From positions 853,978-917,977 of the forward strand of contig JACPJW010000001.1 in assembly GCA_016187335.1 (NCBI GenBank): 64,000 nucleotides of DNA. Direction: 5' to 3'. Below are positions 32,013-46,395 of this stretch, piece by piece. The stretch is from Candidatus Aenigmatarchaeota archaeon. GTDB lineage: Archaea; Aenigmatarchaeota; Aenigmatarchaeia; GW2011-AR5. Position 1 is the first letter of the stretch. The number at the start of each line of letters is the position of its first letter. The notes under the pieces are model-generated. The model had not been told where the DNA came from and did no database searches. It worked only from the letters and a program-made list of their open reading frames with translations. A program made the position numbers and the translations under genes.

Positions 32013-34121
32013 ATGGCAAAAGACGTAATATGCGGCATGTACGTTGACGAGAAGACGCCGTTCAGGGCGGAGCAGGACGGCGTAAAGTATTACTTCTGCA
32101 GCCAGAAGTGCCTTGACACGTTTTTGCAGCCGCAGGTTGAGATGAGAAAGCTGAAATACCTGACGGTGTTCGCTTTGACTTTCGGCTTCCTTACCGCGTT
32201 CTTTGAATATTTCTACCCTGTGTCGCCTTTCGGCCTGCCTAACTACGTTCTATTGTTTCTGTTAGCCACGCCGGTCCAGTTCGTAGCCGGCTGGCGCTTC
32301 TACCAGGGCGCGCGCGACGCTGTAAAGGCAAAGCAGGCGAACATGGACCTTCTCATTGCCATAGGCACGAGCGCCGCGTGGATTTACTCAACGCTGTACA
32401 CATTCCAGGGCATTTTGTGGCCAAGGTTCCTGCCGTCAGTGTCAGCAGGAACGGAGGTTTATTTCACGGAATCCGGGCTCATTATTGGCTTCATCCTTCT
32501 CGGAAAATACATGGAGCACATCGTTAAAGGAAGGGCGTCGCGGGCAATAAGCCGCCTGATTGACTTGCAGCCCAGGATGGCAACAGTTGTCAGAAAGGGA
32601 AAGGAAATTCAGGTGCCCGTAGAGCAGGTGAAAGTCGGAGATGTTATCATCGTAAAGCCCGGCGAGAAAATACCCGTTGACGGGCTGGTTGTTGACGGCT
32701 ATTCTTCCGTTGACCAGTCAATGATAACCGGAGAAAGCATTCCTGTGGAAAAAAAGAAAGGCGACGAGGTAATCGGTGCGACCATAAACAAAACGGGCTT
32801 GCTGAAAGTAAAAGCGACTAAGGTGGGAAGCGACACAACGCTGTCGCAGATAGTCAAGATGGTCCAGGAAGCGATTGTCTCAAGGACGCCGATGCAGCGC
32901 CTGGCCGACGTTGTTTCGTCTTATTTCGTGCCTGCTGTGGTGCTCATAGCCGTATCTTCCTTCCTGTTCTGGTATTACATAGCTGGCCTGGAGTTCTCTT
33001 TGGCATTCACGATGCTCATCGCCGTGCTGATTATCGCATGCCCTTGCGCCCTGGGCATTGCCACGCCCGCTGCAATAATGATAGGCGCGGGCAAGGGCGC
33101 GCAATACGGTATCCTGATAAAAAGCGGCGAGTATCTCGAAAAGGCGAGAAAGATTAACGTTATTGTTTTTGACAAGACGGGAACGCTGACAAGGGGTGAA
33201 CCGTCAGTAACAGACGTGATGCCAATAAGCGGCAGCGACAAGGATGTTCTCCGGTACGCAGCGATAGCTGAGAAAGGCTCGGAGCATCCGCTTGGTGAAG
33301 CGATCGTCCGCGCTGCGCAGGAAAAAAGAATAAAAATACCTTCTGCAGGCAGATTCCGCGCAATTCCTGGTCACGGCGTGGAAGCTTCCTATCAGGGAAA
33401 GAAAATCCTGCTGGGGAACAGGAAATTAATGGGAAAGAGCAAGATAAAGATTGGGAGCGAGGAAAAAATTCAGCAGCTTGAAAATGAGGGAAAAACCGTC
33501 ATGCTTCTGGCAGTCAATAAAAAACTTCTCGGCATGATTGCTGTCGCCGACACGCTGAAGGAAGAATCAGCGGAAACCGTGGAGAAGCTTCATAGTATGA
33601 ACATTGAGACTGTCATGATAACCGGCGACAACCCCAGGACAGCTGATGCCATAGCATCAAAGTTAGGAATAAAGCGCGTGCTTGCGGAAGTGCTGCCGCA
33701 GGACAAGGCAAAAGAAATAAAAAAGCTGCAAAAAGAAGGTAAGATAGTTGCTATGGTCGGCGACGGCATAAACGACGCGCCCGCGCTTGCGCAGGCTGAT
33801 GTCGGCATCGCCGTAGGCGCGGGAACGGACGTTGCAAAGGAAACCGGCGGCATAATATTGATCAAGAACGACCTCCGCGACGTTGTGTTCAGCATTGAAT
33901 TGAGCAGGAAAACCGTGAGGAAGATAAAGGAGAATCTTTTCTGGGCGTTCTTCTATAACATCGCCCTCATCCCGGTTGCCGCCGGTGCCCTGTATCCTTT
34001 CGGGATACTGCTTAATCCTGTTTACGCCGCGATAGCGATGGCGCTCAGCTCCGTCACGGTCGTCGGCAACTCCATGCTGCTGAACCTGTACAATCCGAAA
34101 AAAGGTGATGCGCATCAATGA
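32013..34121 (+). CDS. copA: copper-translocating P1B-type ATPase
   Basis: N-terminal TRASH/YHS metal-binding domain (ICGMYVD...YYFCSQKC), TM CPC motif (IIACPCALG), DKTGTLT phosphorylation site, GDGINDAP hinge, and HP motif (SEHPLGEA). Confidence 0.9.
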
Positions 34122-35259
34122 GAAAAAAGTGGCTTCATTTATCATAGCCATACTCATACTGTCAATTTTGGCGATAATCATATTGTCCGTGTCAATGGCA
34201 TGGTTCTTTTTCAAGTCGCCGCCAAAGACCGGCGGGATTTCCGAGAATGTCCTGAAATCTTCAATGAAAGGGATGATGGGCTACGCATCGCCTGATGACA
34301 TTCCAATTAGGACTCCGCATGACAGGACACCGTTAAGCTTTAATGAGAAAGACGGCGTCAAAGAATTCCGTCTTTCTGCGGAGCCTATAAGATGGGAATA
34401 CGCGAACGGCTATTACGTGACAGCATGGGGGTTCAACGGCCAGGTGCCGGGACCGGAGATACGCGTTTCAGAAGGCGACAGGGTGAGAATAATTTTCACG
34501 AATAACCTTCCAAAGGCAACAGCAGTCCACTGGCACGGCGTAAACGTCCCTAACGGCATGGATGGCGTTCCCGGCGTTACGCAGGAAGCTGTAAAGCCCA
34601 ATGAAACTTTCGTTTACGAATTCACAGCAGAACCAAAAGGCACAAGATACTACCATGCCCACGGCTCGTCGCACATGGACGAGGCCCAGCAGCTTGACAT
34701 GGGATTGTACGGCGCATTCATAATAGAGCCAAGCAACTTTTCAGAAAAGTTGCATCAAAACGGTAAATACGACAAGGAATTTACGCTGCTGCTTGACGAA
34801 TGGGAAATCATGCCCGATGGAACAAACGCTGCCATGCTGCCAGGAATGCATTCAATGGACCATAACGTTTTTACCATAAACGGAAGAGCTTTTCCCGACA
34901 CGGAGCCGCTCAATGTCGCGGAAGGAGATAAGGTTCTTGTGAGAATAATAAACGCCGGCTCGTCAACGGCACATCCCATGCACTTGCACGGGCATTCCTT
35001 CAAAATTGTTGCCGTTGACGGGAATCCCGTGCAGGCGGGGGCGCAGATTGTGAGGGACACCCTGCCTGTGAGCCCGGGAGAGCGATATGATATAGAAATC
35101 ACGGCCGGCAATCCCGGAACATGGATATTCCACTGCCACGAGCTTCATCATGCGGACGGCGGGATGATAATACCTTTTATGTATGAAGGGTATGATAACA
35201 TAAGCAGGCCGCCATCCCAAAAAGTGCCGGGCTTGGGGCACGAAATGCACGGAGGATAA
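34105..35259 (+). CDS. multicopper oxidase (two/three cupredoxin domains)
   Basis: HWHG (type 2/3 Cu site), HxH (HAHGSSH), C-terminal [12 protein letters not shown] (type 1 Cu Cys plus His pairs), and an N-terminal signal anchor. Overlaps the copA 3' end by 17 nt. Confidence 0.8.
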
Positions 35260-35260
35260 A

Positions 35261-35758
35261 ATGTTAAGCAACATTTCATTGAGCAGGAAAAACATCGGCG
35301 CGATAATCATAGTCATATCGCTTTTCATCTTCGTGCTTTCATACCTCTACATGGACACCGTGAAAAAGCTGGATGCGCAGCTCCACAAGGACTGCGACCT
35401 GCCTGACGAGATATGCCCGTTCAAGAAGAACATACCGCCCGAAGCTGCGGCGGGCTTCGCCGTTTCAGCCGTTACAGGCTTGTTCGGCGCTTTCGTTTAT
35501 TTTTCCTCTCCCAAAAACGAAAAGGAAGTCGCGGAAAAATTAAGCAGGAGCAAAGAAATTCTCTCAAGGCTTGACATCGACGAAAAGAAAATCTACGGCA
35601 TGATAGCAGAAAGCGGCTCAGTGTTCCAGAGCGAGCTTGTTGAGAAGAGCGGCATGAGCAAGGTGAAGATAACGCGATTATTGGATAGATTAGAGTCAAA
35701 AGGCGTCGTGGAAAGGAAGAGAAGGGGCATGACGAACATAGTCATGGTGAAGCAGTAA
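35261..35758 (+). CDS. membrane-anchored winged-helix (MarR-like) transcriptional regulator
   Basis: N-terminal TM, a second hydrophobic segment, and a C-terminal wHTH (ESGSVFQSELVEKSGMSKVKITRLLDRLESKGVVERK). Confidence 0.5.
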   Translation: MLSNISLSRKNIGAIIIVISLFIFVLSYLYMDTVKKLDAQLHKDCDLPDEICPFKKNIPPEAAAGFAVSAVTGLFGAFVYFSSPKNEKEVAEKLSRSKEILSRLDIDEKKIYGMIAESGSVFQSELVEKSGMSKVKITRLLDRLESKGVVERKRRGMTNIVMVKQ

Positions 35759-35882: not shown

Positions 35883-37193
35883 ATGATTATCATGAAAAAC
35901 AAAAAAGGCCATTACAAGCTGAAGCGCTCGCTGGGATTGCTTGAGTTGTCTTTGTACGGCATCGGGATAATCCTCGGCGCCGGGATTTACGCCCTGATAG
36001 GCGTTGGCGCAGGGATTGCCGGAAATGCGTTGTGGATTTCCTTTGTCGTAGCGGCGATGATAGCGGCTTTTACGGGGCTGAGCTACGCGGAACTGTCTTC
36101 TATATATCCTAAGGAAGCCGCGGAATACAATTACACGAAAAATGCGTTCAATAGAAAATACCTGTCGTTCAGCGTAGGCTGGCTCATGGTCGTCGCAAGC
36201 GTCGTCGCGGCTGTTACCGTGGCTTTCGGCTTCGCAGGTTATTTCACGCACATGTTCGGCGGCAACGTAACAATTGTCGCTGCCGCTCTGGTCCTGGTTC
36301 TTTCGGCCATAAATTACATCGGGATAAAGGAGTCATCCGCCTTTAACATAGTTTCCACTATTATTGAAAGCGCAGGCCTGCTGATTGTGATTTTTGTAGG
36401 GCTGCTCTTTTTCGGCTCAAACGGAGTCAGTGTCGACCTGTTCGAGACCCCGGGCAGTGCGGGCATTCCTGCAATCCTTTCCGCGACGGCGCTGATATTC
36501 TTCGCTTACCTGGGCTTCGAGGACATTGTCAACGTTTCCGAAGAGACGAAAAACGCAAAAAAGATTGTCCCGAAAGCGCTTTTGATAGCGATAGTCGTGT
36601 CCACGGTGCTTTACATTCTGGTGGCCCTCTCCGCCGTGAATATCTTGGGATGGGAAAGGCTTGCCGCGAGCAAGGCGCCGCTCACGGAGGCGGTTTCTTC
36701 GGTAATTCCTAACAGCGATTTCATGTTTTCGCTCATTGCGCTTTTTGCAACGGCGAACACGGCGCTGATACTGCTCATTGTCGGCTCGCGCATACTTTAC
36801 GGCATGTCTTCGGACCGCTCCATGCCCGAAATGTTCTCCGTCATAGGCAAGAGGGGAACGCCTTATTTCTCCGTCGCGGCTGTCGCGCTTGCCTCGATGG
36901 CTGTAACCTCTGTCGGAAACATCAAGGCTGTTGCGTCGATAACCGACATCACGCTGTTCATCATCTATTTCGCCGTCAACGCGTCGCTGATTGCGCTGCG
37001 ATATAAACAGCCCAATGCGAAAAGAACTTTCAGGACTCCCCTGAACATCGGAAAATTCCCGGTCCTCGCTTTCCTCGGCCTGCTTTCCTCGCTCTTCATG
37101 CTGTTTTATTTTGAGAAGGACCTCATCGTCATCGAAATCGCCCTCATCCTTGCGGGCTTCGTTCTTTACAAGGCTTTCGGCAAGAAACAGTGA
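35883..37193 (+). CDS. APC-superfamily amino acid/polyamine permease
   Basis: 12 predicted TM segments. The N-terminal LGLLELSLYGIGIILGAGIYALIG is typical of the APC family. Confidence 0.8.
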   Translation: MIIMKNKKGHYKLKRSLGLLELSLYGIGIILGAGIYALIGVGAGIAGNALWISFVVAAMIAAFTGLSYAELSSIYPKEAAEYNYTKNAFNRKYLSFSVGWLMVVASVVAAVTVAFGFAGYFTHMFGGNVTIVAAALVLVLSAINYIGIKESSAFNIVSTIIESAGLLIVIFVGLLFFGSNGVSVDLFETPGSAGIPAILSATALIFFAYLGFEDIVNVSEETKNAKKIVPKALLIAIVVSTVLYILVALSAVNILGWERLAASKAPLTEAVSSVIPNSDFMFSLIALFATANTALILLIVGSRILYGMSSDRSMPEMFSVIGKRGTPYFSVAAVALASMAVTSVGNIKAVASITDITLFIIYFAVNASLIALRYKQPNAKRTFRTPLNIGKFPVLAFLGLLSSLFMLFYFEKDLIVIEIALILAGFVLYKAFGKKQ

Positions 37194-37370: not shown

Positions 37371-37805
37371 TCACCCCGCGCCGCTGATTTTCTTTCGGGG
37401 CATCAGGTAGAGTGAAACAAGCCTGTCAGCAAGCTTGTCCTCGTATTTCATCAGGTCTGTTGCAGTTACCATGCCTATGCACCTGTTGTCCTTGCATACT
37501 GGCAGCCGCTTGATGTTGTGCTTCAGCATAAGTCTTGCAGCTTCTTCCAGCGTCGTTTCCGGCGTTATCGTGATGACTTTTTTTGTCATTATGTTTTTTA
37601 TCAGCGTGTCCGGGCTTTTCCCTGCTGCAAACGCCTTTAAAATATCCCGCTCCGTGATGATGCCGCTCAGCTCAAAGCTGTCAACAACAATCAGGGAGCC
37701 GATGCCGTACTTGCTCATGACCTCGGCGGCAAACCTTATTGTTTCGCCTGGCTCGATTATTTTCAGCTTCGTGCTCATGATTTCCTTGACTTTCATCGGT
37801 TTCAA
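37371..37805 (-). CDS. CBS domain pair protein
   Basis: Two CBS motifs (VKEIMSTKLKIIEPGETIRFAAEVMSKYGIGSLIVV and IMTKKVITITPETTLEEAARLMLKHNIKRLPV). Confidence 0.75.
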   Translation of the reverse strand: MKPMKVKEIMSTKLKIIEPGETIRFAAEVMSKYGIGSLIVVDSFELSGIITERDILKAFAAGKSPDTLIKNIMTKKVITITPETTLEEAARLMLKHNIKRLPVCKDNRCIGMVTATDLMKYEDKLADRLVSLYLMPRKKISGAG

Positions 37806-37908
37806 TTCCTCCGCTGATGACTTAACATTATAGTTCCTTGCTTATAAATAGCTAGATGAAACTAGTTTCACCTTATCCGATATATGGTGTTTCATTTATT
37901 CTAAATGC

Positions 37909-38643
37909 ATGAACGAAAAGGAAAACGGCAACAAAGAAAAGCGCGGGGAAGTCGTAAACCTGAGCATCCCGCTGGAAACAATAACCATCGTCCTGGCAGT
38001 TGCCCTGGTCATCGTGGTTGTCTACAACCAGCTGGCAATCAACGAGCTCGGCTACCTTGCGGCTGCGGTCGGCGCGTCGCCGGAAAACCAGAACGCCGCT
38101 CAAAGCGCTGTATTAAGCAGCATTGACGTGACTCCGAAAGGCGTTCCGGCGGTGTACGGAGCGGAACTCGGAATAAGCTACGATGACGTGAGCGCAGGCA
38201 ATCCCCAGAAAGCCGATGCAACGATACAAAAATTAGCGGCATATGACACAAGCATAGAGCTTGATGCGCAGCAGCTTGAGCGGTACGTGAAAATTGCAGG
38301 CCAGATATCCTGCGAGTACTGCTGCGGGGCCGACTCAATTATCTTCACGAAGGATTCAGGACAGTACAAGAAGGGCGACGCGGCATGCGGCTGCGCGCAC
38401 AGCTACGCGATGAGGGGCTTGGCGAAATACCTGATAACGCAGCACGGTGACGAATTCACGGACGACCAGATACTCGAGGAACTGGGCAAGTGGAAGACGC
38501 TGTTCTTCCCTGACATCCTGGCACAGAAAGCTGCAGTGCTCCAGGATAAAGGAATAGAGCTTAACTACGTGAACCTTGCCTCCAACAAGTACAGGAACAT
38601 AGAAGCGGGAACTGACGGAGGCGGAATGGTAGGAGGTTGCTGA
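37909..38643 (+). CDS. secreted/membrane-anchored Cys-motif protein (PCYCGC-like motifs) ending in GGGMVGGC
   Basis: N-terminal TM, SCEYCCGADS and ACGCAHS motifs, and a C-terminus GTDGGGMVGGC*. First gene of a co-directional cluster. Confidence 0.45.
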   Translation: MNEKENGNKEKRGEVVNLSIPLETITIVLAVALVIVVVYNQLAINELGYLAAAVGASPENQNAAQSAVLSSIDVTPKGVPAVYGAELGISYDDVSAGNPQKADATIQKLAAYDTSIELDAQQLERYVKIAGQISCEYCCGADSIIFTKDSGQYKKGDAACGCAHSYAMRGLAKYLITQHGDEFTDDQILEELGKWKTLFFPDILAQKAAVLQDKGIELNYVNLASNKYRNIEAGTDGGGMVGGC

Positions 38644-38647
38644 ATTT

Positions 38648-38671
38648 GAAACTTTGCTTCTCCAAAGTTTC
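38648..38671. repeat. B-type hairpin (GAAACTTT-N8-AAAGTTTC) in the intergenic spacer between 38643 and 38697
   Basis: Perfect 8-bp inverted repeat, a member of the AACTTTT/AAAAGTT hairpin family seen elsewhere in the window. Confidence 0.55.
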
Positions 38672-38696
38672 ATCAAAAGAGACTAGTGGTGAATAA

Positions 38697-38888
38697 ATGA
38701 ACGTAAATATCTTGTTTGCAGTATTCATGGCTGTCCTGCTTGTGCTGTCCGTGTTCCAGACGATGCAGATAACAAGCATAAAGAGCGAGCTGAAAACAAA
38801 AATATCTGCCTCGCCGTCTGCCGCATCAAGCAGTCAAAGCCAGGGAAGCACGGGCTCCAGCAGCTCCGGAATGGTCGGTGGGTGCTGA
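38697..38888 (+). CDS. small single-TM protein with Ser-rich tail ending in SGMVGGC
   Basis: 63 aa. Shares the C-terminal GMVGGC-stop with the upstream gene at both amino-acid and nucleotide level (ggaatggtNggNggNtgctga). Stop overlaps the next start (TGATG). Confidence 0.4.
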   Translation: MNVNILFAVFMAVLLVLSVFQTMQITSIKSELKTKISASPSAASSSQSQGSTGSSSSGMVGGC

Positions 38889-39400
38889 TGATAGCCTTCT
38901 TTGCTTTTTTTATTATTTTTTTGCTTTCGCTGGCGCAGAAATCTTTCGCCCACTGCCCGCTGTGCGTGGCTGCAACGGGCTCTGTGGTGGCTGCATCAAG
39001 GGTAATGGGAGTTGACGATGCCATAACCGGAACGTTCGCGGGAGCTTTCATAATATCGACAGCATTGTGGACGGACAAAATGCTTTCAAAAAGAAAAGTC
39101 CATCTGCCTTTGCAGCCATACCTGCTGTCGGCGCTATTCATTACAATGACATTCGCAGGGTTTTACCTTTTCGGATTCGTCGGGACCGAGCCGGGATTCC
39201 TTAGCATAATGGGGATCGAGAGGCTCTCTTTTGGCATCATTGCCGGAAGCTTAATAGTCCTGATTTCGTATGAAGCTCACAACTTTTTGAGAAAATCGAA
39301 CAGCGGCAGGAATCACATACCTTTCCAGGGAATTCTTGTGCCGATAATTGCTCTGGTCATTTTTGACGTGCTGATGTACGTAGCAGGTGTGTTCGGATGA
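38888..39400 (+). CDS. integral membrane protein with HCPLC motif
   Basis: 4-5 TM segments and a CPLC pair at the start of the first TM (AHCPLCVAATG). Candidate thiol/metal-handling membrane protein. Confidence 0.45.
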   Translation: MIAFFAFFIIFLLSLAQKSFAHCPLCVAATGSVVAASRVMGVDDAITGTFAGAFIISTALWTDKMLSKRKVHLPLQPYLLSALFITMTFAGFYLFGFVGTEPGFLSIMGIERLSFGIIAGSLIVLISYEAHNFLRKSNSGRNHIPFQGILVPIIALVIFDVLMYVAGVFG

Positions 39401-39822
39401 AGCCGCAGAAAAATAATAAGGGAAATGAGGTTAGAAGGAGAAAAACCGTAGGTTTTTCCTCCTCTAAAGGCGATGTAACGAAGGCGCAGGACCTCGCGCT
39501 CGCAGTCACGAACCTGATAAGCCTTGAGGAGCACCTTGCCTTCACGGCAATGAAGACAGGAAACAGCGACTTTCACGAGATGGCTAAAGCAGTGAGAAAG
39601 ATAAGAATCATGTGCCTGCGCAACCTGATAGGCGAGCCTGCGGGCGAGTTATGGTGCTCGTCAAAGCACGCGCTGTCGGCCATGATGCGTTTGTTTGAGG
39701 TCGCGAGCAAGGAAGAAGGCAAAAAATGCGAGGAATACATGAAAGCTGCGTTCGATCTGTACCAGCTGTTCTGGCTTTTCAAGGAGATAGGAAATGATGG
39801 AACTAAAACTAAAAAGGCTTAA
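39397..39822 (+). CDS. hypothetical protein
   Basis: 141 aa soluble ORF with conserved Cys (CLRNL, WCSS, KKCEEY). No recognisable family. Confidence 0.35.
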   Translation: MKPQKNNKGNEVRRRKTVGFSSSKGDVTKAQDLALAVTNLISLEEHLAFTAMKTGNSDFHEMAKAVRKIRIMCLRNLIGEPAGELWCSSKHALSAMMRLFEVASKEEGKKCEEYMKAAFDLYQLFWLFKEIGNDGTKTKKA

Positions 39823-39858
39823 AGCAAAATTAAGCAAAGCGGTAAAAAACGCGCTGCA

Positions 39859-40290
39859 GTGCTGCTACGAGGAGTGAACAAACTTTTCAAAATGGTGATA
39901 AAATTCATGAAGAAGATATACCTTGCACTTGCTGTATTTCTGGTCGCCGCGCTTGTCGCAGGAGTTGTCATAGCATTTCCCAATAAAAATGCGGTTCCGG
40001 CGTATGCAACAAGGCATCCCCTGATAAAGGAAGCCTACATGTTTTCAGTGGACAGCCCCGAAGCACTTGACGGCGTGAACTGCTACTGCGGCTGCATGCA
40101 CCACCCTCATGACGGGCGCATTCATGCCCGCGGGCTGCTTGACTGCTTCAGGACAGCAGACGGCGGCTTTGACCGGCACGCGAGTGAGTGCGACATGTGC
40201 ATCAAGGATGCACTAGAGGTCAAGCAGATGACCCAGCAGGGAAAATCACGCGATGAAATAAGAAGCTACATAGACGGAAAATACGCCTGA
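39859..40290 (+). CDS. PCYCGC-motif domain protein (membrane-anchored)
   Basis: Signal anchor, then VNCYCGCMHHPHDG...CDMC. The CYCGC motif defines the PCYCGC family of unknown function. Confidence 0.5.
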   Translation: MLLRGVNKLFKMVIKFMKKIYLALAVFLVAALVAGVVIAFPNKNAVPAYATRHPLIKEAYMFSVDSPEALDGVNCYCGCMHHPHDGRIHARGLLDCFRTADGGFDRHASECDMCIKDALEVKQMTQQGKSRDEIRSYIDGKYA

Positions 40291-40292
40291 AA

Positions 40293-40360
40293 GAAACTTT
40301 TCCAAAAAGTTTCATCATTTGCGAAGAAACAAAGTTTCTTCGAAATCCCGAAGAACTTCG
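40293..40360. repeat. three consecutive hairpins immediately after the 40290 stop
   Basis: gaaactttt-cca-aaaagtttc (40293-40313), cgaagaaac-aaa-gtttcttcg (40322-40342), and cgaag-aa-cttcg (40349-40360). Confidence 0.55.
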
Positions 40361-40440
40361 CTCTTCGAGGAAAATGGTAGACCTTCTTAGAGGTCTTCAA
40401 TCAAAAATAAGAATCCAAGGTTTGCTTTCCATCTTGATAG

Positions 40441-40908
40441 ATGATTGTTATGAAAAAAACGGGGAAAAAGAACGGCAAAAGTATCTTTGGTTGGCTGGGT
40501 TCAGCTTCAGGAAGCGGCGCGATAGCGGGCGCCCACAACGTATGCCATGCCCTGTGCCAGGGCTTGGTTCTTTTCTTGGCGCTGTTCGGGATAGCCGTCT
40601 CGTCAACCGCCCTCATGTTTCTGGAGGACTACGCGGTGTATTTCTGGTCAATGGGACTGTTTTTCCTTTTAATCTCGGCGTATTTTTTTGCTGTCAGGAA
40701 ACAGGGCTCGCAAAAGCTGCTGCTCGCGAACTCGGGAATACTTTTGGCAGGAATACCTTTCAGGCAGTTCGAGGCATTTTCGGCGGCTTTTCTTGCCGCG
40801 GGCGGGGCGATGATAGCTTTCAGTGTTTTCCTTTATTTGAACGAAAGAAATTTTCTTGTATTTGGAAATAGGAACAATGGAGGGCGTAAGAATGGCAAAA
40901 GTGGCTAA
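40441..40908 (+). CDS. integral membrane protein with CxxxC motif
   Basis: 155 aa with 4 TM segments. NVCHALCQG lies at the first TM. Confidence 0.45.
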   Translation: MIVMKKTGKKNGKSIFGWLGSASGSGAIAGAHNVCHALCQGLVLFLALFGIAVSSTALMFLEDYAVYFWSMGLFFLLISAYFFAVRKQGSQKLLLANSGILLAGIPFRQFEAFSAAFLAAGGAMIAFSVFLYLNERNFLVFGNRNNGGRKNGKSG

Positions 40909-41134
40909 GGAAAAAATATTCACGTATGTATTGGCAGGAGCGATAGCAGTGCTCGTCGCAGTTCTTTTATGGTCGCTGCTCCAGCCGGCGCCTGATTACT
41001 ACGGCGCCAGCTATGAGCGCGCGAAGCAGAGCAAGCTGTCAGACAAATGCGCGACGCCGTCTGGCTACACCGATGCGCAGTGGCGCGAGCATATGGGCCA
41101 CCACCCGGACCAGTACGCGGAATGCTTTAAGTAA
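40877..41134 (+). CDS. small TM-anchored protein with C-terminal Cys/His motif
   Basis: Start uncertain (40856/40877/40892). C-terminus CATPSGYTDAQWREHMGHHPDQYAEC. Confidence 0.35.
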   Translation: MEGVRMAKVAKEKIFTYVLAGAIAVLVAVLLWSLLQPAPDYYGASYERAKQSKLSDKCATPSGYTDAQWREHMGHHPDQYAECFK

Positions 41135-41169
41135 ATTTTTGAATAATTTGAACTGCGGAAAGGATAGGA

Positions 41170-41787
41170 ATGAAAATGAAAAAAGCCGCATATATTGCCG
41201 CAGGGCTTATTCTTGTTGCTATAATCTACCTTGCATTCTTCACCAAGCCTTCCTATGAGCCGGGAGAGATGGAAGAGCACATCAGGGGAAACCACAACGC
41301 TCCCATTGTCATCGTGGAGTTCAGCGACTTCCAGTGCCCTTACTGCAGGGCCGTGCAGCCGGCGCTCAACCAGCTGCTAACGGAATACCCCGATGATGTC
41401 AAGCTGATTTACCGGCATTTCCCGCTGCCTTCGCACCAGTACGCCATGAAAGCCGCGGAAGCCTCGGAATGCGCAGCCAACCAGGGAAAGTTCTGGGAAT
41501 ATCACGACATGCTTTTCCAGAATCAGGAGCGGCTTGACGTAAATTCGCTGAAAAGTTACGCAAAGCAACTTGGATTAAACACGACCTCTTTCAATGCGTG
41601 CCTTGACAGCGGAGCAATGCAGCAACGCATAGAAATAATCGTAAAGAACGGCGCGGAGAAAGGCGTTACAGGGACGCCGACATTCCTGATAAACGACAAA
41701 ATGCTGTCAGGCAACCAGCCCTACAGCGTGTTCAAAACATCTGTGGACGAAGAGCTGAAAAAATTAAATGAAACCCGGCGAGTCTAA
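41170..41787 (+). CDS. DsbA-like thiol:disulfide oxidoreductase (thioredoxin fold), membrane-anchored
   Basis: Signal anchor plus a CPYC active site in FSDFQCPYCRAV, and a DsbA-type second domain. Confidence 0.7.
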   Translation: MKMKKAAYIAAGLILVAIIYLAFFTKPSYEPGEMEEHIRGNHNAPIVIVEFSDFQCPYCRAVQPALNQLLTEYPDDVKLIYRHFPLPSHQYAMKAAEASECAANQGKFWEYHDMLFQNQERLDVNSLKSYAKQLGLNTTSFNACLDSGAMQQRIEIIVKNGAEKGVTGTPTFLINDKMLSGNQPYSVFKTSVDEELKKLNETRRV

Positions 41788-42128
41788 TGATTTGCATCGC
41801 GGCTTTGATAGTCCTCGGCATTCTCGGCATTTTTTCCGCATATCATCGGAAGCTCGCCAGAGAAGCCTTTGACTGCGTGCTGAACAGGATAAAGCTGCGC
41901 GAGTGCGAGGCGGGCTTTGACCGCAGGATGAAGATGGCTGTTTTCAATAAGCTTTCATGGTCGCCGCGCCTTGCACGGCTCTGGTATGACCACTTTGAGC
42001 TTGTTTCGTGGGCTTTCGTGATTTTGTTTTTTGCAAGCCTGTATTTCGCGGCTGCCGGAATCTACAACCTTATAACATACGGGACATGCGACCCCGCGAC
42101 GGGGCAGTGCATTTTGAAATTGAAATAG
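41787..42128 (+). CDS. small membrane protein with conserved Cys pairs
   Basis: 113 aa with two TM segments. CVLNRIKLRECEAG and a C-terminal GTCDPATGQC. Start overlaps the dsbA-like stop. Confidence 0.4.
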   Translation: MICIAALIVLGILGIFSAYHRKLAREAFDCVLNRIKLRECEAGFDRRMKMAVFNKLSWSPRLARLWYDHFELVSWAFVILFFASLYFAAAGIYNLITYGTCDPATGQCILKLK

Positions 42129-43641: not shown

Positions 43642-44643
43642 TTACCCGAACGTGAACGCGAAAATCTTCAGCCCGTCCTCCGTGACGATTTTTATCTCCC
43701 TGGTGCCGTGGTTTCCTTTTACGAGATTGTACATATCGGGATGCGTTACGACGACAAAGCTCTTTCCGCCCTCGGTGACGACATCATCGCCCGCTTCTTC
43801 TTTCTTCAGGGGCTTGTCGTTGAGCAGTATTTCCGCTTTCGCTTTGCTGGAGTCCATCACGGCGTTGACTTCCGAGGCCGTGAATTTCAATGTGAGGTGA
43901 CCTTTCTTCTTTTCATGCTGCAGGAACTCGTCGTGCTGCGACCAGTCGCCGTCAAGGTAGATTGTGTCATTGCGGTGGTGCTTCGGGTCTGCGTAGGAAC
44001 CGCAGTCGCCGGGCATGCAGACGATGCCGTTGCCCAGCCCGGGATTGCGCAGCAGGCCGCAATACAGTTCGGGTGTTATTTTCAAAGCGGAAGGGCGGGG
44101 CTCGCTCCCAAGCTTGGCCGGAAGATCATCCTTGGTTTTTCTTTTTATTCCGAGCAGTTCGACAATCTTTCCCTCCGTTTCCCCGTAGGCGCCCTCGCCG
44201 GCGTGGTCGTAAACAATAACGCCTTTCCTGTCAACAAGAAGCTTTCTCGGCCACCATCTGTTTTTGTATCTGTACCATGTTTTGTATTCGCTGTCAACCG
44301 CTACGGGGTAAGCAATGTTATACTTTTTCACGGCGCTGCGCACATTTTCAGCGTCCTTCTCAAAATCAAACTCCGGCGTATGCACGCCGATTATCACCAA
44401 GCCTTTCTTTGAGTACTGCTGATGCCACTGCTTCAGGTATGGCAGCGTCCTCTGGCAGTTGACGCATGAATACGTCCAGAAATCTATCAGAACAACCTTG
44501 CCCTTTAGTTGGCTGATTTTCAGCGGCTTTGAATTGAGCCATGCCACAGCGTCTATTTCAGGCGCCTGTTTGCCCATCCATCCCTGTGAAAGCAGTCTTT
44601 CGAACATGATTAACACCGGAAGAAAAGCAGAGCGATCCGGCAA
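43642..44643 (-). CDS. thioredoxin-like (TlpA/ResA-type CxxC) oxidoreductase with a C-terminal beta-rich domain (DipZ C-terminal-like)
   Basis: FWTYSCVNCQRTLP is the redoxin active site. An extra domain of about 170 aa with conserved Cys (YCGLL, CMPGDCGSY) follows. Confidence 0.6.
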   Translation of the reverse strand: MPDRSAFLPVLIMFERLLSQGWMGKQAPEIDAVAWLNSKPLKISQLKGKVVLIDFWTYSCVNCQRTLPYLKQWHQQYSKKGLVIIGVHTPEFDFEKDAENVRSAVKKYNIAYPVAVDSEYKTWYRYKNRWWPRKLLVDRKGVIVYDHAGEGAYGETEGKIVELLGIKRKTKDDLPAKLGSEPRPSALKITPELYCGLLRNPGLGNGIVCMPGDCGSYADPKHHRNDTIYLDGDWSQHDEFLQHEKKKGHLTLKFTASEVNAVMDSSKAKAEILLNDKPLKKEEAGDDVVTEGGKSFVVVTHPDMYNLVKGNHGTREIKIVTEDGLKIFAFTFG

Positions 44644-44684: not shown

Positions 44685-44843
44685 TTACTTTGCGTACTTG
44701 TCAGGGCTTTCCATGAACTTTTTCCTGCAATCCGGGCTGCAGAAGAAATAGCCAGCACCCTTGTAGCTCGCCCTCTCTCTGCCGGCGCTTATGTGCATCT
44801 TGCAGACAGGGTCTATCGGCATAATTCCATCCTTTCTGTTCAT
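44685..44843 (-). CDS. YHS-domain small metal-binding protein (52 aa, not in ORF track)
   Basis: Manual translation gives MNRKDGIMPIDPVCKMHISAGRERASYKGAGYFFCSPDCRKKFMESPDKYAK*. It fits the YHS consensus (DPVCGM...Y.G..YYFCS..C...F). Lies directly upstream of, and co-oriented with, the redoxin gene. Confidence 0.6.
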   Translation of the reverse strand: MNRKDGIMPIDPVCKMHISAGRERASYKGAGYFFCSPDCRKKFMESPDKYAK

Positions 44844-45036: not shown

Positions 45037-45057
45037 GAAACTTTTCGGAAAAGTTTC
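45037..45057. repeat. B-type hairpin gaaacttttc-g-gaaaagtttc abutting the 5' end of tRNA-Cys
   Basis: Perfect 10-bp inverted repeat whose arms are identical to the hairpin at 40293-40313. Confidence 0.55.
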
Positions 45058-45291: not shown

Positions 45292-46395
45292 ATGAGAAAT
45301 CTTAATCCTGACTTTGATATAAAAGGTTCGTCGCCGGCAATAAATGGGGTAAAATTGCTGATTGAAACGTATGCGCCATGGGATATTTCGGTCCTAATAA
45401 CAGGAGAGAAGGGAACCGGAAAAGAACTTGTTGCGCGCCAGATGCATAATAGGTCAGGACGAAAAGGCAATTTTGTTGCTCAGAATTGCGGCGGCGTACC
45501 AGAGGGTCTCGCGCCTACGCTTTTTTACGGCCATAGAAAAGGTGCATTTACAGATGCCAGGGATGACAAACCCGGGCTATTCTTGCTCGCTGAAAACGGC
45601 ACGTTGTTTCTTGACGAAGCCGAAGCCATGCCTCTGTCAATTCAACCGGTATTACTAAGGCCGCTTGATGGTTACGGCATCAGGCCGATAGGCAGCACTG
45701 CAGAAATTTATCCTAATTTTCGTGTTGTTGCAGCCACAAATCAAGAGCTTACACCAGACGGTTTCAGGAGCGACCTTCTTGACCGGCTTGATGGTTTCAG
45801 AATTCATATGCCGCCGCTGCGCGAGATACGAGAGGATATCCCAGAGATAGTAGAATTTTACTTGGAACAGATGAGGCGTAATTACGGTAGGAGAAAACAA
45901 TTTACAAGTGACGCGCTTTCCTTGTTGAAAAATCATGACTTTCCCGGAAACACGCGCCAGCTTATAAATGTTGTAAAATACGCTTATTTTGGCTCGAATA
46001 TGCACGATTTTATAGGAGCCGACCTGGTAGAACGGAGGCTATTTGGGAAAACAGCTGTAGAAGTTCCTGAAAAAGATGCGCCAGCTTATGAACCCGGAAG
46101 AGTTGTACCTGTTACCGGCAACGGTGAAGTCCGGGATAGAATTGCTGCCATACAAAATCCGCGCGAAAGAGAAATAGTTGAGGCGCTTTTAAGGCATGGC
46201 GGAAGAATGAGAGATGTCGCAGCAGAAATGCATATTACGTATCAAGGATTGTACGGAAGAATAAGAGCCTTAGGTTATCCAGGAACGGAAGAATTATATG
46301 TAAAGCATGAAATACCGAATTACAGGACTAGAACATCCAAGGCTCCTCCAGGTGTGCGGGTTGAAGTGCGGCAAAGAAGCAGCCATGTTATGTAG
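45292..46395 (+). CDS. sigma54-interaction-domain AAA+ transcriptional activator (PspF-like bEBP lacking a sensor domain) with a C-terminal Fis-type HTH
   Basis: Walker A GEKGTGKE, GAFTGA-like loop KGAFTDA, Walker B LFLDEAEAM, R-finger RVVAATNQ, and the FRSDLLDRL...PPLREIREDI block. C-terminal HTH IVEALLRHGGRMRDVAAEMHITYQGLYGRI. Confidence 0.75.
   Translation: MRNLNPDFDIKGSSPAINGVKLLIETYAPWDISVLITGEKGTGKELVARQMHNRSGRKGNFVAQNCGGVPEGLAPTLFYGHRKGAFTDARDDKPGLFLLAENGTLFLDEAEAMPLSIQPVLLRPLDGYGIRPIGSTAEIYPNFRVVAATNQELTPDGFRSDLLDRLDGFRIHMPPLREIREDIPEIVEFYLEQMRRNYGRRKQFTSDALSLLKNHDFPGNTRQLINVVKYAYFGSNMHDFIGADLVERRLFGKTAVEVPEKDAPAYEPGRVVPVTGNGEVRDRIAAIQNPREREIVEALLRHGGRMRDVAAEMHITYQGLYGRIRALGYPGTEELYVKHEIPNYRTRTSKAPPGVRVEVRQRSSHVM

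Follow-up and report, generated by a model that had tools for sequence, protein, structure and literature searches.

Several known proteins carry cysteines on flexible C-terminal tails, such as the Cys-Cys of MerA, the Gly-Cys-Sec-Gly of high-Mr thioredoxin reductase, the Cys-Gly-Cys of Erv2, and the His-Cys-His of Ctr1. The cysteines of these tails carry a metal ion or a disulfide into or out of a buried site, either in the same subunit or in a partner subunit. In the sulfur-carrying protein SoxY the arm reportedly reads GGCGG. SoxY is extracytoplasmic, and presents to the sites of its partners an arm with a single cysteine in a Gly-Gly setting, at a flexible C-terminal end (PMC5336275). Closer to copper, CopG has a thioredoxin-like domain with a CxCC cluster site (PMC7558416), and the Scs system has copper-induced extracytoplasmic CxxC proteins with a DsbD-like membrane reductant conduit, such that Cu(I) binding is tied to disulfide chemistry (PMC8900818, PMC10907172). 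Here we analyze a stretch of 64,000 nucleotides (the window) from a Candidatus Aenigmatarchaeota archaeon (contig JACPJW010000001.1, positions 853,978 to 917,977), in which two neighboring predicted surface proteins of a tiny groundwater archaeon, p1 and p2, share a C-terminal cysteine tail, MVGGC, and we ask how this locus compares with those systems.

A first-pass annotation of the window had singled out a cluster of nine co-directional open reading frames (ORFs), here p1 to p9 (Table 1), rich in cysteine motifs. The nine ORFs are all there, on the + strand, with every one of the listed motifs, and the 244-residue p1 and the 63-residue p2 do both end in GMVGGC (...TDGGGMVGGC* and ...SSSSGMVGGC*). 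The codons of the tail and the stop are ATG GTA GGA GGT TGC TGA in p1 and ATG GTC GGT GGG TGC TGA in p2. The three differences are all synonymous, thus the two tails match at the level of the protein, and not as a DNA repeat. No other ORF in the window ends in G-x-C.

The tail extends well beyond this genome. We collected the gene context of p1 homologs in 80 related loci (numbered L-series; context counts below are out of these 80), to which distant Micrarchaeia loci such as L082 and L083 were added, for 83 loci altogether. A census of the 12,522 ORFs of at least 25 amino acids in the window and the 80 related loci gave 161 with the ending GGC; in 154 of them this is the full MVGGC, an excess far beyond chance. 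The first-pass annotation had considered that homologs might lack the motif; we observe that 115 of the 120 best p1 homologs have M[VI]GGC as their C-terminus, behind a Gly/Ser-rich linker that varies. The invariant hexapeptide it proposed does survive as a shared and conserved C-terminal cysteine tail, but the Gly in front is variable, and the conserved unit is the pentapeptide MVGGC. Over the whole p1 superfamily the tail takes the form [M/Q/W]-V-G-x-C-COOH, in many cases with Leu-Pro in front (LPxQVGGC, MVGSC, WVGEC and others). Among the full-length superfamily members used for residue statistics (n=229), all 229 end in Cys and have Gly at position -2, and position -3 is Val in 216. The terminal Cys and the Gly at -2 are the invariant parts of the tail.

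The codons tell the same story as the residues. Val, Gly, and Cys in the tail use every synonymous form, and the three stops TAA, TAG, and TGA are all used, which argues that selection acts on the peptide and that the Cys is genuinely C-terminal. Between adjacent genes, the 15 nucleotides of the tail show 0-4 differences, most often 2. Within a genome, the p1 tail is that of the nearest small tail protein in 65 of 66 pairs, and even rare variants come matched: QVGGC with QVGGC (L035, L037, L082), and MAGAC with MAGAC (L048). Such concerted change of the tails, with differing codons, points to one shared recognition partner. We have found no previous description of the tail in Pfam, NCBIfam, PDB, or the searchable literature, as the first-pass annotation had supposed; literature searches on MVGGC, PCYCGC, and DPANN copper systems returned no relevant paper and no mention of the motif. 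As a side observation, two short p1-domain paralogs (L034 5769-6317 and L053 10870-11478) end in ...AGSCSA or ...AGSCNV, with the Cys two residues from the end, and each of them lies directly 3′ of an ordinary MVGGC mini-protein gene.

The first of the two proteins, p1, is 100% identical to hypothetical protein HYW26_05455 of a Ca. Aenigmarchaeota metagenome-assembled genome (MAG). Its N-terminal transmembrane (TM) anchor reads ...VYNQLAINEL, and its conserved ectodomain, of about 170 amino acids, carries the motifs C135-E-Y-C-C139 (CEYCCG) and C160-G-C162-A-H164 (CGCAHS). All 229 full-length members have exactly six cysteines in the ectodomain, five of them in C-x-x-C-C plus C-G-C-x-H, and the sixth at the terminus. 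There are 2103 homologs of p1 at E<=1e-3, and all those with a named source are DPANN (Aenigm-, Woese-, Micr-, and Nanoarchaeota, and Diapherotrites). A HMMER search for the superfamily in a space of 1.84 billion cluster representatives yields 310 clusters at 50% identity, and a survey using one genome per species finds relatives of p1 in 329 species. Conservation of the tail spans the Aenigm-, Woese-, Pace-, Nano-, Micr-, and Iainarchaeota.

No sequence relative of p1 was found in Pfam (E<=0.1), NCBIfam, or PDB. Two identities were considered and rejected. The first-pass annotation had counted two PCYCGC-motif proteins in the cluster; the assignment is right for p5 (PF13798, 50.4 bits) and fails for p1, for which hhalign gives a probability of 2.9% over 8 columns against p5, and of 1.7% against a 9-sequence PCYCGC alignment. 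Nor is p1 a DUF411/CopG protein, as it has no PF04214 match. An AlphaFold2 (AF2) model of p1 is mainly helical, with a mean predicted local distance difference test (pLDDT) of 85.7, and with tail residues 242-244 below 50, a disorder that is as expected for an arm. The best Foldseek match of this model in PDB has an E-value of 0.64, which is not meaningful.

The second protein, p2, belongs to a large group of mini-proteins. About 70 of the 154 MVGGC-ending ORFs are p1 homologs; the other 89 are small proteins, of 44-154 amino acids, in which a single hydrophobic helix at the N-terminus leads through a low-complexity linker to the tail. In p2 the terminal residue is the sole Cys, and in all 86 mini-proteins scored the only Cys after the helix is the terminal one. 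The p2 start codon has a GGTGA 5 nucleotides upstream, and a sister MAG has a homolog that its annotation lists as a gene (HY368_01575). A profile search with the small proteins matches 174 database proteins, and all organism-named matches are DPANN; the 174 are unnamed or 'hypothetical' save for one with a JGI label, ABC-type molybdate-binding protein. An anchor-end motif h-[N/Q]-x-x-Q-[I/L]-x-x-L is common to p1 and the small proteins. The topology of p1 and of the mini-proteins was predicted from hydrophobicity and flanking charge only; the N-terminal flank has the more positive charge, which by prediction places the tail outside the cell. In this the extracytoplasmic placement suggested by the first-pass annotation is borne out, in so far as the proteins are predicted to be membrane-anchored.

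Small tail genes adjoin at least 79 of 82 p1-domain genes (a lower bound, 81 after manual inspection), including 13 of the 14 that have no tail of their own. A p1 domain thus has the tail in cis, or in trans from its neighbor, or both, and the small tail protein is part of the p1-domain system. Met/His modules are present in 45 of the 89 mini-proteins (WTEDEKMMYEHHG, YEEMMARMHPDQ); by count, WTEDEKMMYEHHGTLPARLQ is found in 29 and GETYEEMMARMHPDQ in 16. Separately, 18 of the 89 have an N-terminal extension rich in Cys-Cys and His, predicted to lie on the cytoplasmic side, and at L072 (9959-10732) there is a natural fusion of the p1 ectodomain with the WTEDEKMMYEHHGTLPARLQ module. There is also a second type of operon, with a p1-domain paralog, a mini-protein ending in NLPx[M/Q]VGGC, and a membrane-anchored protein with 2-3 thioredoxin-like CxxC modules; the paralog is sometimes fused to a large membrane domain, and cupredoxin and CcdA-like genes are near.

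The genes around p1 keep a conserved order, in which a two-TM regulator is followed by p1, by between one and three tail mini-proteins, and then by CopG/DUF411, p3, p4, and p6/p7. The nine genes that the first-pass annotation took together are not an invariant unit. The core is the regulator, a palindrome GAAACTAGTTTC, p1, the small tail protein or proteins, p3 (59/80), and p4 (44/80); p6 (21/80, plus L082) and p7 (24/80, plus L082) are frequent, and DsbA (10/80), PCYCGC (7/80), and p9 (1/80) come and go as accessories. Among the nine proteins, p5 and p8 alone match a Pfam or NCBIfam model (p1, p2, p3, p4, p6, and p7 match none), and Pfam scans of the conserved neighbor proteins found no family for these six either.

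The tie to neighboring copper genes that had been suspected in the window proves robust across loci. CopG/DUF411 proteins are encoded by separate genes directly after the tail genes in 26 of the 80 loci (PF04214, E 1e-23 to 1e-25), and a CopA-type ATPase lies within 10 kb in 32, along with YHS/TRASH or cupredoxin proteins. The distant Micrarchaeia members lie beside CsoR-type or CopY/BlaI-type regulators, HMA-CopA, DsbD_TM-like proteins, PCYCGC, DsbA, and cupredoxins. Thiol-redox genes are a recurrent second theme, with thioredoxin genes in 17 loci.

The explanation that we favor, tentatively and with slightly less than even confidence, is that the tail is a cysteine arm which works with the Cys5His ectodomain in a DPANN-specific, probably copper-regulated, form of extracytoplasmic copper handling. 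The conserved tail, the flexible linker, the tie to the ectodomain in cis and in trans, and the copper gene clusters together suggest a swinging arm that inserts into the ectodomain. The tail would sit outside the cell, at the tip of a flexible Gly/Ser/Ala/Pro linker, on a protein anchored by its N-terminal helix, and it would be supplied in cis by p1, in trans by the adjacent mini-proteins, or by both. Its terminal thiolate would plug into the five-Cys/His site and bind Cu(I) there. A six-thiolate Cu cluster is possible at the ectodomain site, from its five Cys and the Cys of the tail; that six is also the number of thiolates in the classical Cu4S6 cluster is a matter of speculation. The Gly-Gly context suggests, by analogy with SoxY, a tip suited to enter a narrow pocket (PMC5336275). 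From there Cu(I) would be passed among p1, the mini-proteins, and the HCPLC site of p3, and the Cu(I) expelled by CopA would thereby be sequestered or relayed. Cu(I) seems the likeliest cargo given the Met/His modules, the context of CopG, CopA, and cupredoxins, and the CopG-like Cys-dense motifs.

Several observations weigh against this explanation. Position -4 is Met in 192 of the 229 full-length members, Gln in 32, and Trp in 3, so a Met plus Cys chelate is not general, and Met is not an obligatory metal ligand. These substitutions favor instead recognition of the peptide by a pocket, and the strict V-G-G context, too, is more in keeping with a motif read by a pocket or an enzyme than with a plain ligand. 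AF2 left the p1 tail undocked. In the L072 locus, p3 and p4 follow as usual, and an MVGGC tail is nowhere to be found. And thiol-disulfide oxidoreductases (DsbA, proteins with 2-3 CxxC thioredoxin modules, CcdA-like proteins) are equally recurrent neighbors, which fits a redox role just as well.

A redox role is indeed the alternative that we take most seriously, even if we judge it somewhat unlikely. Here the terminal Cys would be a shuttling or resolving cysteine, forming mixed disulfides with the odd fifth Cys of p1 and with CxxC partners (the HCPLC of p3, the multi-thioredoxin proteins, DsbA), with reductant arriving by a CcdA-like transfer. Its function would be to repair or prevent the copper-catalyzed mis-oxidation of surface thiols, or to reduce or oxidize copper itself, like the bacterial Scs. 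The arithmetic of the cysteines fits, as the p1 domain has an odd number (five) of invariant Cys plus the one in the tail, and just one Cys of each mini-protein is external. So does the gene order: a CxxC extracytoplasmic protein comes directly 3′ of the tail genes in both operon types, namely p3 in 59 of the 80 loci and the protein with 2-3 CxxC thioredoxin modules in L008, L050, L063, L067, and L082, and DsbA, a CcdA/DsbD_TM-like protein, and PCYCGC are near. NCBIfam describes selenoprotein members in the families of p5 and p8, suggesting redox catalysis, and ScsC-type proteins join Cu(I) binding and disulfide isomerase activity in one protein (PMC8900818, PMC10907172). On the other hand, the Met/His modules and the company of CopG, CopA, and cupredoxins speak for metal being bound directly, the core operon shows no evident terminal electron acceptor, be it a flavin, a quinone, or another, and the DsbA and thioredoxin genes are accessory (10/80 and 17/80). 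The redox and the copper roles overlap, and both could be true together.

That the tail is instead a tag for processing or attachment, by which an enzyme lipidates, cleaves, or links the terminal Cys (to lipid, S-layer, or host cell), was among the first-pass suggestions, and we find it improbable. An invariant V-G-G-C at an exact C-terminal place does resemble an enzyme recognition motif, the same tag is found on otherwise unrelated protein bodies, and the concerted variation of tails within genomes implies one shared recognition partner. But no co-conserved peptidase, transferase, sortase, or archaeosortase-like gene turned up, the only constant partners being p1, p3, and p4. Moreover, known sorting signals have a TM helix after the motif, whereas here the Cys is last and three different stops are used, the tail tracks the p1 domain specifically, in every p1 subfamily in cis or in trans, and the proteins are already N-terminally anchored. 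A covalent carrier like SoxY, in which the terminal Cys would hold a sulfane sulfur or other adduct, loaded or unloaded by the p1 domain, for instance for the precipitation of copper sulfide, is in our opinion very improbable. The formal likeness to the sulfur-carrying Gly-Gly-Cys swinging arm of SoxY is close (PMC5336275), down to extracytoplasmic proteins with a single Cys on a flexible Gly-rich arm; against it, there are no Sox, rhodanese, DsrE, or TusA genes in the 83 loci, there is no homology to SoxY, and the context is one of copper and thiol-redox. Finally, a functionless accident of one lineage, or a DNA repeat maintained by gene conversion, is almost certainly wrong. All that speaks for it is the likeness of 3′ ends first noticed in a single genome, and it has to contend with a tail conserved over six DPANN lineages and 329 species genomes, and with the nucleotide differences between adjacent tails given above.

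We also rejected several more specific identities. Membership in SoxY fails on three counts: no profile match of p1 or p2, a tail that is xVGGC-COOH and not GGCGG, and no sox genes in the loci examined. The sorting signals PGF-CTERM, LPXTG, and GlyGly-CTERM are dismissed by a Cys that is last in 229 of 229 members and by the absence of a sortase-like conserved neighbor, and CaaX/Rab prenylation, which calls for a Cys at -4 or a CC/CXC end on a cytosolic protein, by a single last-position Cys that is predicted to lie outside the cytoplasm, beyond an N-terminal anchor, no search for prenyltransferase genes having been made. A ubiquitin-like or ThiS-MoaD tail does not fit a p1 model that is mainly helical with a TM segment, mini-proteins without a folded domain, and loci without an E1 or JAMM conserved neighbor. 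A precursor of ribosomally synthesized and post-translationally modified peptides is similarly discarded: the Cys is last, the tail is predicted extracytoplasmic, and no cognate enzyme is co-conserved.

Table 1. Features of the window discussed in the text, in order of position, and loci of the second operon type.
Feature	Position	Strand	Description
Cu(I)-type P1B ATPase	32013..34121	+	N-terminal YHS domain (Pfam)
Multicopper oxidase	34105..35259	+	Pfam Cu-oxidase_3/_2
Membrane-bound winged-helix regulator	35261..35758	+	Pfam DUF7343/MarR/TrmB
12-bp palindrome GAAACTAGTTTC	37858..37869	.	Candidate operator, 40 nt upstream of p1 start
p1	37909..38643	+	244 aa; TM anchor, ectodomain, G-rich linker, MVGGC-COOH
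p1 tail codons (Met-Val-Gly-Gly-Cys)	38626..38640	+	TGA stop at 38641-38643
Inverted repeat GAAACTTTG...CAAAGTTTC	38648..38671	.	p1-p2 spacer; arms same as operator
p2	38697..38888	+	63 aa; TM anchor (...SVFQTMQITSIK), Ser-rich linker, MVGGC-COOH
p2 tail codons (Met-Val-Gly-Gly-Cys)	38871..38885	+	TGA stop 38886-38888, overlapping p3 start
p3	38888..39400 (alternative start 38882)	+	Polytopic membrane protein, HCPLC
p4	39397..39822	+	141 aa, helical, no predicted TM segment; SLEEH, GE-WC-SKH
p5	39859..40290 (annotated start 39907)	+	PCYCGC / CYCXC-family protein
Inverted repeat GAAACTTTTCC..AAAAAGTTTC	40293..40313	.	Downstream of p5, upstream of p6
p6	40441..40908	+	Membrane protein, conserved C-H-x-x-C (CHALC) in first helix
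p7	40892..41134 (alternative start 40856)	+	Anchored small protein, C...W.EHMxHHPDQY.EC
p8	41170..41787	+	DsbA-like oxidoreductase, CPYC
p9	41787..42128	+	113 aa, two TM, two Cys pairs (C-x9-C, C-x6-C)
YHS-domain protein	44685..44843	-	52 aa (Pfam)
Fourth GAAACT..AGTTTC repeat	45037-45057		Upstream of YHS gene
Second operon type	L008 3-1570; L050 4091-5557; L063 508-1466; L067 18092-19832; L082 6001-8061

The palindrome GAAACTAGTTTC is a candidate operator that recurs in several DPANN lineages. With at most one mismatch, it is found within 300 nucleotides upstream of p1 in 50 of 78 loci, with only 66 sites of this type in 1.15 Mb, and it sits about 50-90 nucleotides upstream of p1 in L001-L079. 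In the window, there are four GAAACT...AGTTTC inverted repeats when 0.12 would be expected, all of them intergenic and all in this neighborhood. The protein encoded at 35261-35758, which is probably the sensor and regulator of the operon, has two TM helices, an outer loop reading CDLPDEICPF, and a C-terminal winged helix-turn-helix of MarR/TrmB type. It has homologs in 67 of the 80 loci, usually directly upstream of p1, and the outer loop of the regulator keeps Cys...Cys-Pro-x-His; in the window it is split from p1 by an amino-acid permease (35883-37193) and a CBS-pair gene (37371-37805, - strand). The palindromes and the membrane-bound regulator suggest, we infer, a one-component surface sensor with a small regulon. 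Scans for sigma-70 promoters and intrinsic terminators gave counts at background, and are uninformative for an archaeon.

Among the other core proteins, p3 has a predicted signal peptide, an invariant A-H-C-P-L-C at the predicted signal-peptidase site, and five helices. Cleavage at that site would leave a mature p3 that starts His-Cys-Pro-Leu-Cys, on the outer face. Its gene comes directly after the tail genes. The AF2 model of p3 (pLDDT 87.2) shows a signal-peptide-like helix and five further helices; p3 has no Pfam family, and the best Foldseek match in PDB, with an E-value of 1.8, is not meaningful. As a side observation, p3 has AHCPIC, not AHCPLC, in three of the four Gln-tail loci with a detected p3, that is, in L022 (10904-), L035, and L077 (1407-), and not in L037. 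The Gln-type tails there are QVGSC or QVGGC, and AHCPIC never occurs in Met-type loci. The pairing could reflect co-variation or shared ancestry, probably in 2-3 independent events, and is a hint only. The next gene, p4, follows p3; neither a Pfam scan that also took in 17 of its homologs nor a profile search of PDB gave a match. Many p4 homologs end in ...KKIVDCCKE, with a C-terminal Cys-Cys (for example, L022 11451-11954, L048 11795-12316, and L077 1933-2448), a motif that p4 of the window does not have.

The remaining genes of the cluster are more variable. p5 is a PCYCGC protein by PF13798 (E 2.9e-13, its bit score well above the cut-off of 25) with the motif NCYCGCMHH, and it matches NF041379 (E 1.4e-18, 66.7 bits) under the 90-bit equivalog cut-off; in L082/L083 (Micrarchaeia) a PCYCGC gene is directly upstream of the p1-like gene. 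The small protein p7 has two Cys and no tail, and it pairs with p6 even in distant Micrarchaeia (L082 8058-8297); its pattern C-x-x-P-x-G-Y-x4-W-x-E-H-M-x-H-H-P-D-Q-Y-x-E-C resembles the MMARMHPDQ module of the mini-proteins. The first-pass reading of p8 as a DsbA-like CPYC oxidoreductase is supported by PF13462 (E 7.6e-34, 117.7 bits) and PF01323 (E 1.1e-26, 94.2 bits). The start of p9 overlaps the DsbA stop (TAATG), an arrangement of translational coupling, and p9 may serve the DsbA-like protein as a DsbB/VKOR-like reoxidant; with a homolog in a single related locus, it does not count among the conserved members of the system.

Outside the nine genes, the ATPase at 32013-34121 belongs to the P1B-1 CopA group, with E1-E2 ATPase and HAD domains and the motifs CPC, N-x6-YN-x4-P, and M-x2-SS (MALSS). 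These are the TM motifs by which the P1B-1 group is reportedly defined. The upstream genes of the window also include a PadR-TRASH regulator and a YHS protein. Adjoining the YHS gene at 44685-44843, a 333-residue protein with Redoxin/AhpC-TSA and Thioredoxin_10 domains (43642-44643, - strand) has no homolog within 10 kb in any of the 80 loci. Further on, a strong match to the Sigma-54 interaction (AAA+) domain (PF00158, E 1.5e-44) is found in a 367-residue protein (45292-46395, + strand). We know of no sigma-54 in archaeal genomes, so this domain is unexpected; the gene could be a horizontal acquisition, or it could reflect a binning or assembly issue.

What is new here is a set of undescribed families, and a new C-terminal tag that they share, within the homeostasis of copper and thiols at the envelope. 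At least 329 species-level DPANN genomes keep this operon despite their tiny size, and its core proteins p1, the tail mini-proteins, p3, and p4 are all 'hypothetical' and without a match in Pfam, NCBIfam, or PDB. A tail that crosses phyla, is supplied in cis or in trans, and co-varies within genomes is a tractable handle on copper or thiol stress at the surface of these cells, and the conserved operator with its TM regulator could serve to predict regulons in uncultured archaea. If the arm model is true, stand-alone tethered cysteine arms would be a new design of metallochaperone or carrier. A larger claim is possible, though we hold it to be less likely than not: that this is an unrecognized surface carrier system of DPANN, in which a novel-fold Cys5His ectodomain and interchangeable arms in cis and in trans hand on a cargo of Cu(I) or a covalent thiol adduct that is loaded on the terminal Cys, as a membrane-tethered and trans-acting analog of the SoxY arm that serves metal detoxification, under a TM one-component regulator at a pan-DPANN operator.

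How far do the known systems take us? The CxxCC and CxC-x-H motifs of p1 resemble the CxCC cluster site of CopG (PMC7558416), but p1 is predicted to be mainly helical and has no DUF411, CopG has no C-terminal Cys arm, and a CopG gene is absent from this window. With PCYCGC proteins p1 shares the short string CGC-x-H only, with no detectable homology. The accessory DsbA-like, multi-thioredoxin, and CcdA-like genes are analogous to those of Scs, whereas p1, p2, p3, and p4 lack both a thioredoxin fold and a counterpart in Scs (no orthology test against ScsA-D was made). Each of the tails of MerA, thioredoxin reductase, Erv2, and Ctr1 offers a pair of ligand residues, on a flavoenzyme or a transporter; the tail described here has one terminal Cys, and is carried by an unrelated ectodomain and by stand-alone mini-proteins. 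The likeness to SoxY is that of a lone Cys in a Gly-Gly context, on a C-terminal arm, in an extracytoplasmic protein. In contrast with SoxY, nothing follows the Cys here, the proteins are tethered to the membrane, SoxZ and the other sox genes are missing, the context is copper rather than sulfur oxidation, and the arm is found also on mini-proteins that have no folded body at all.

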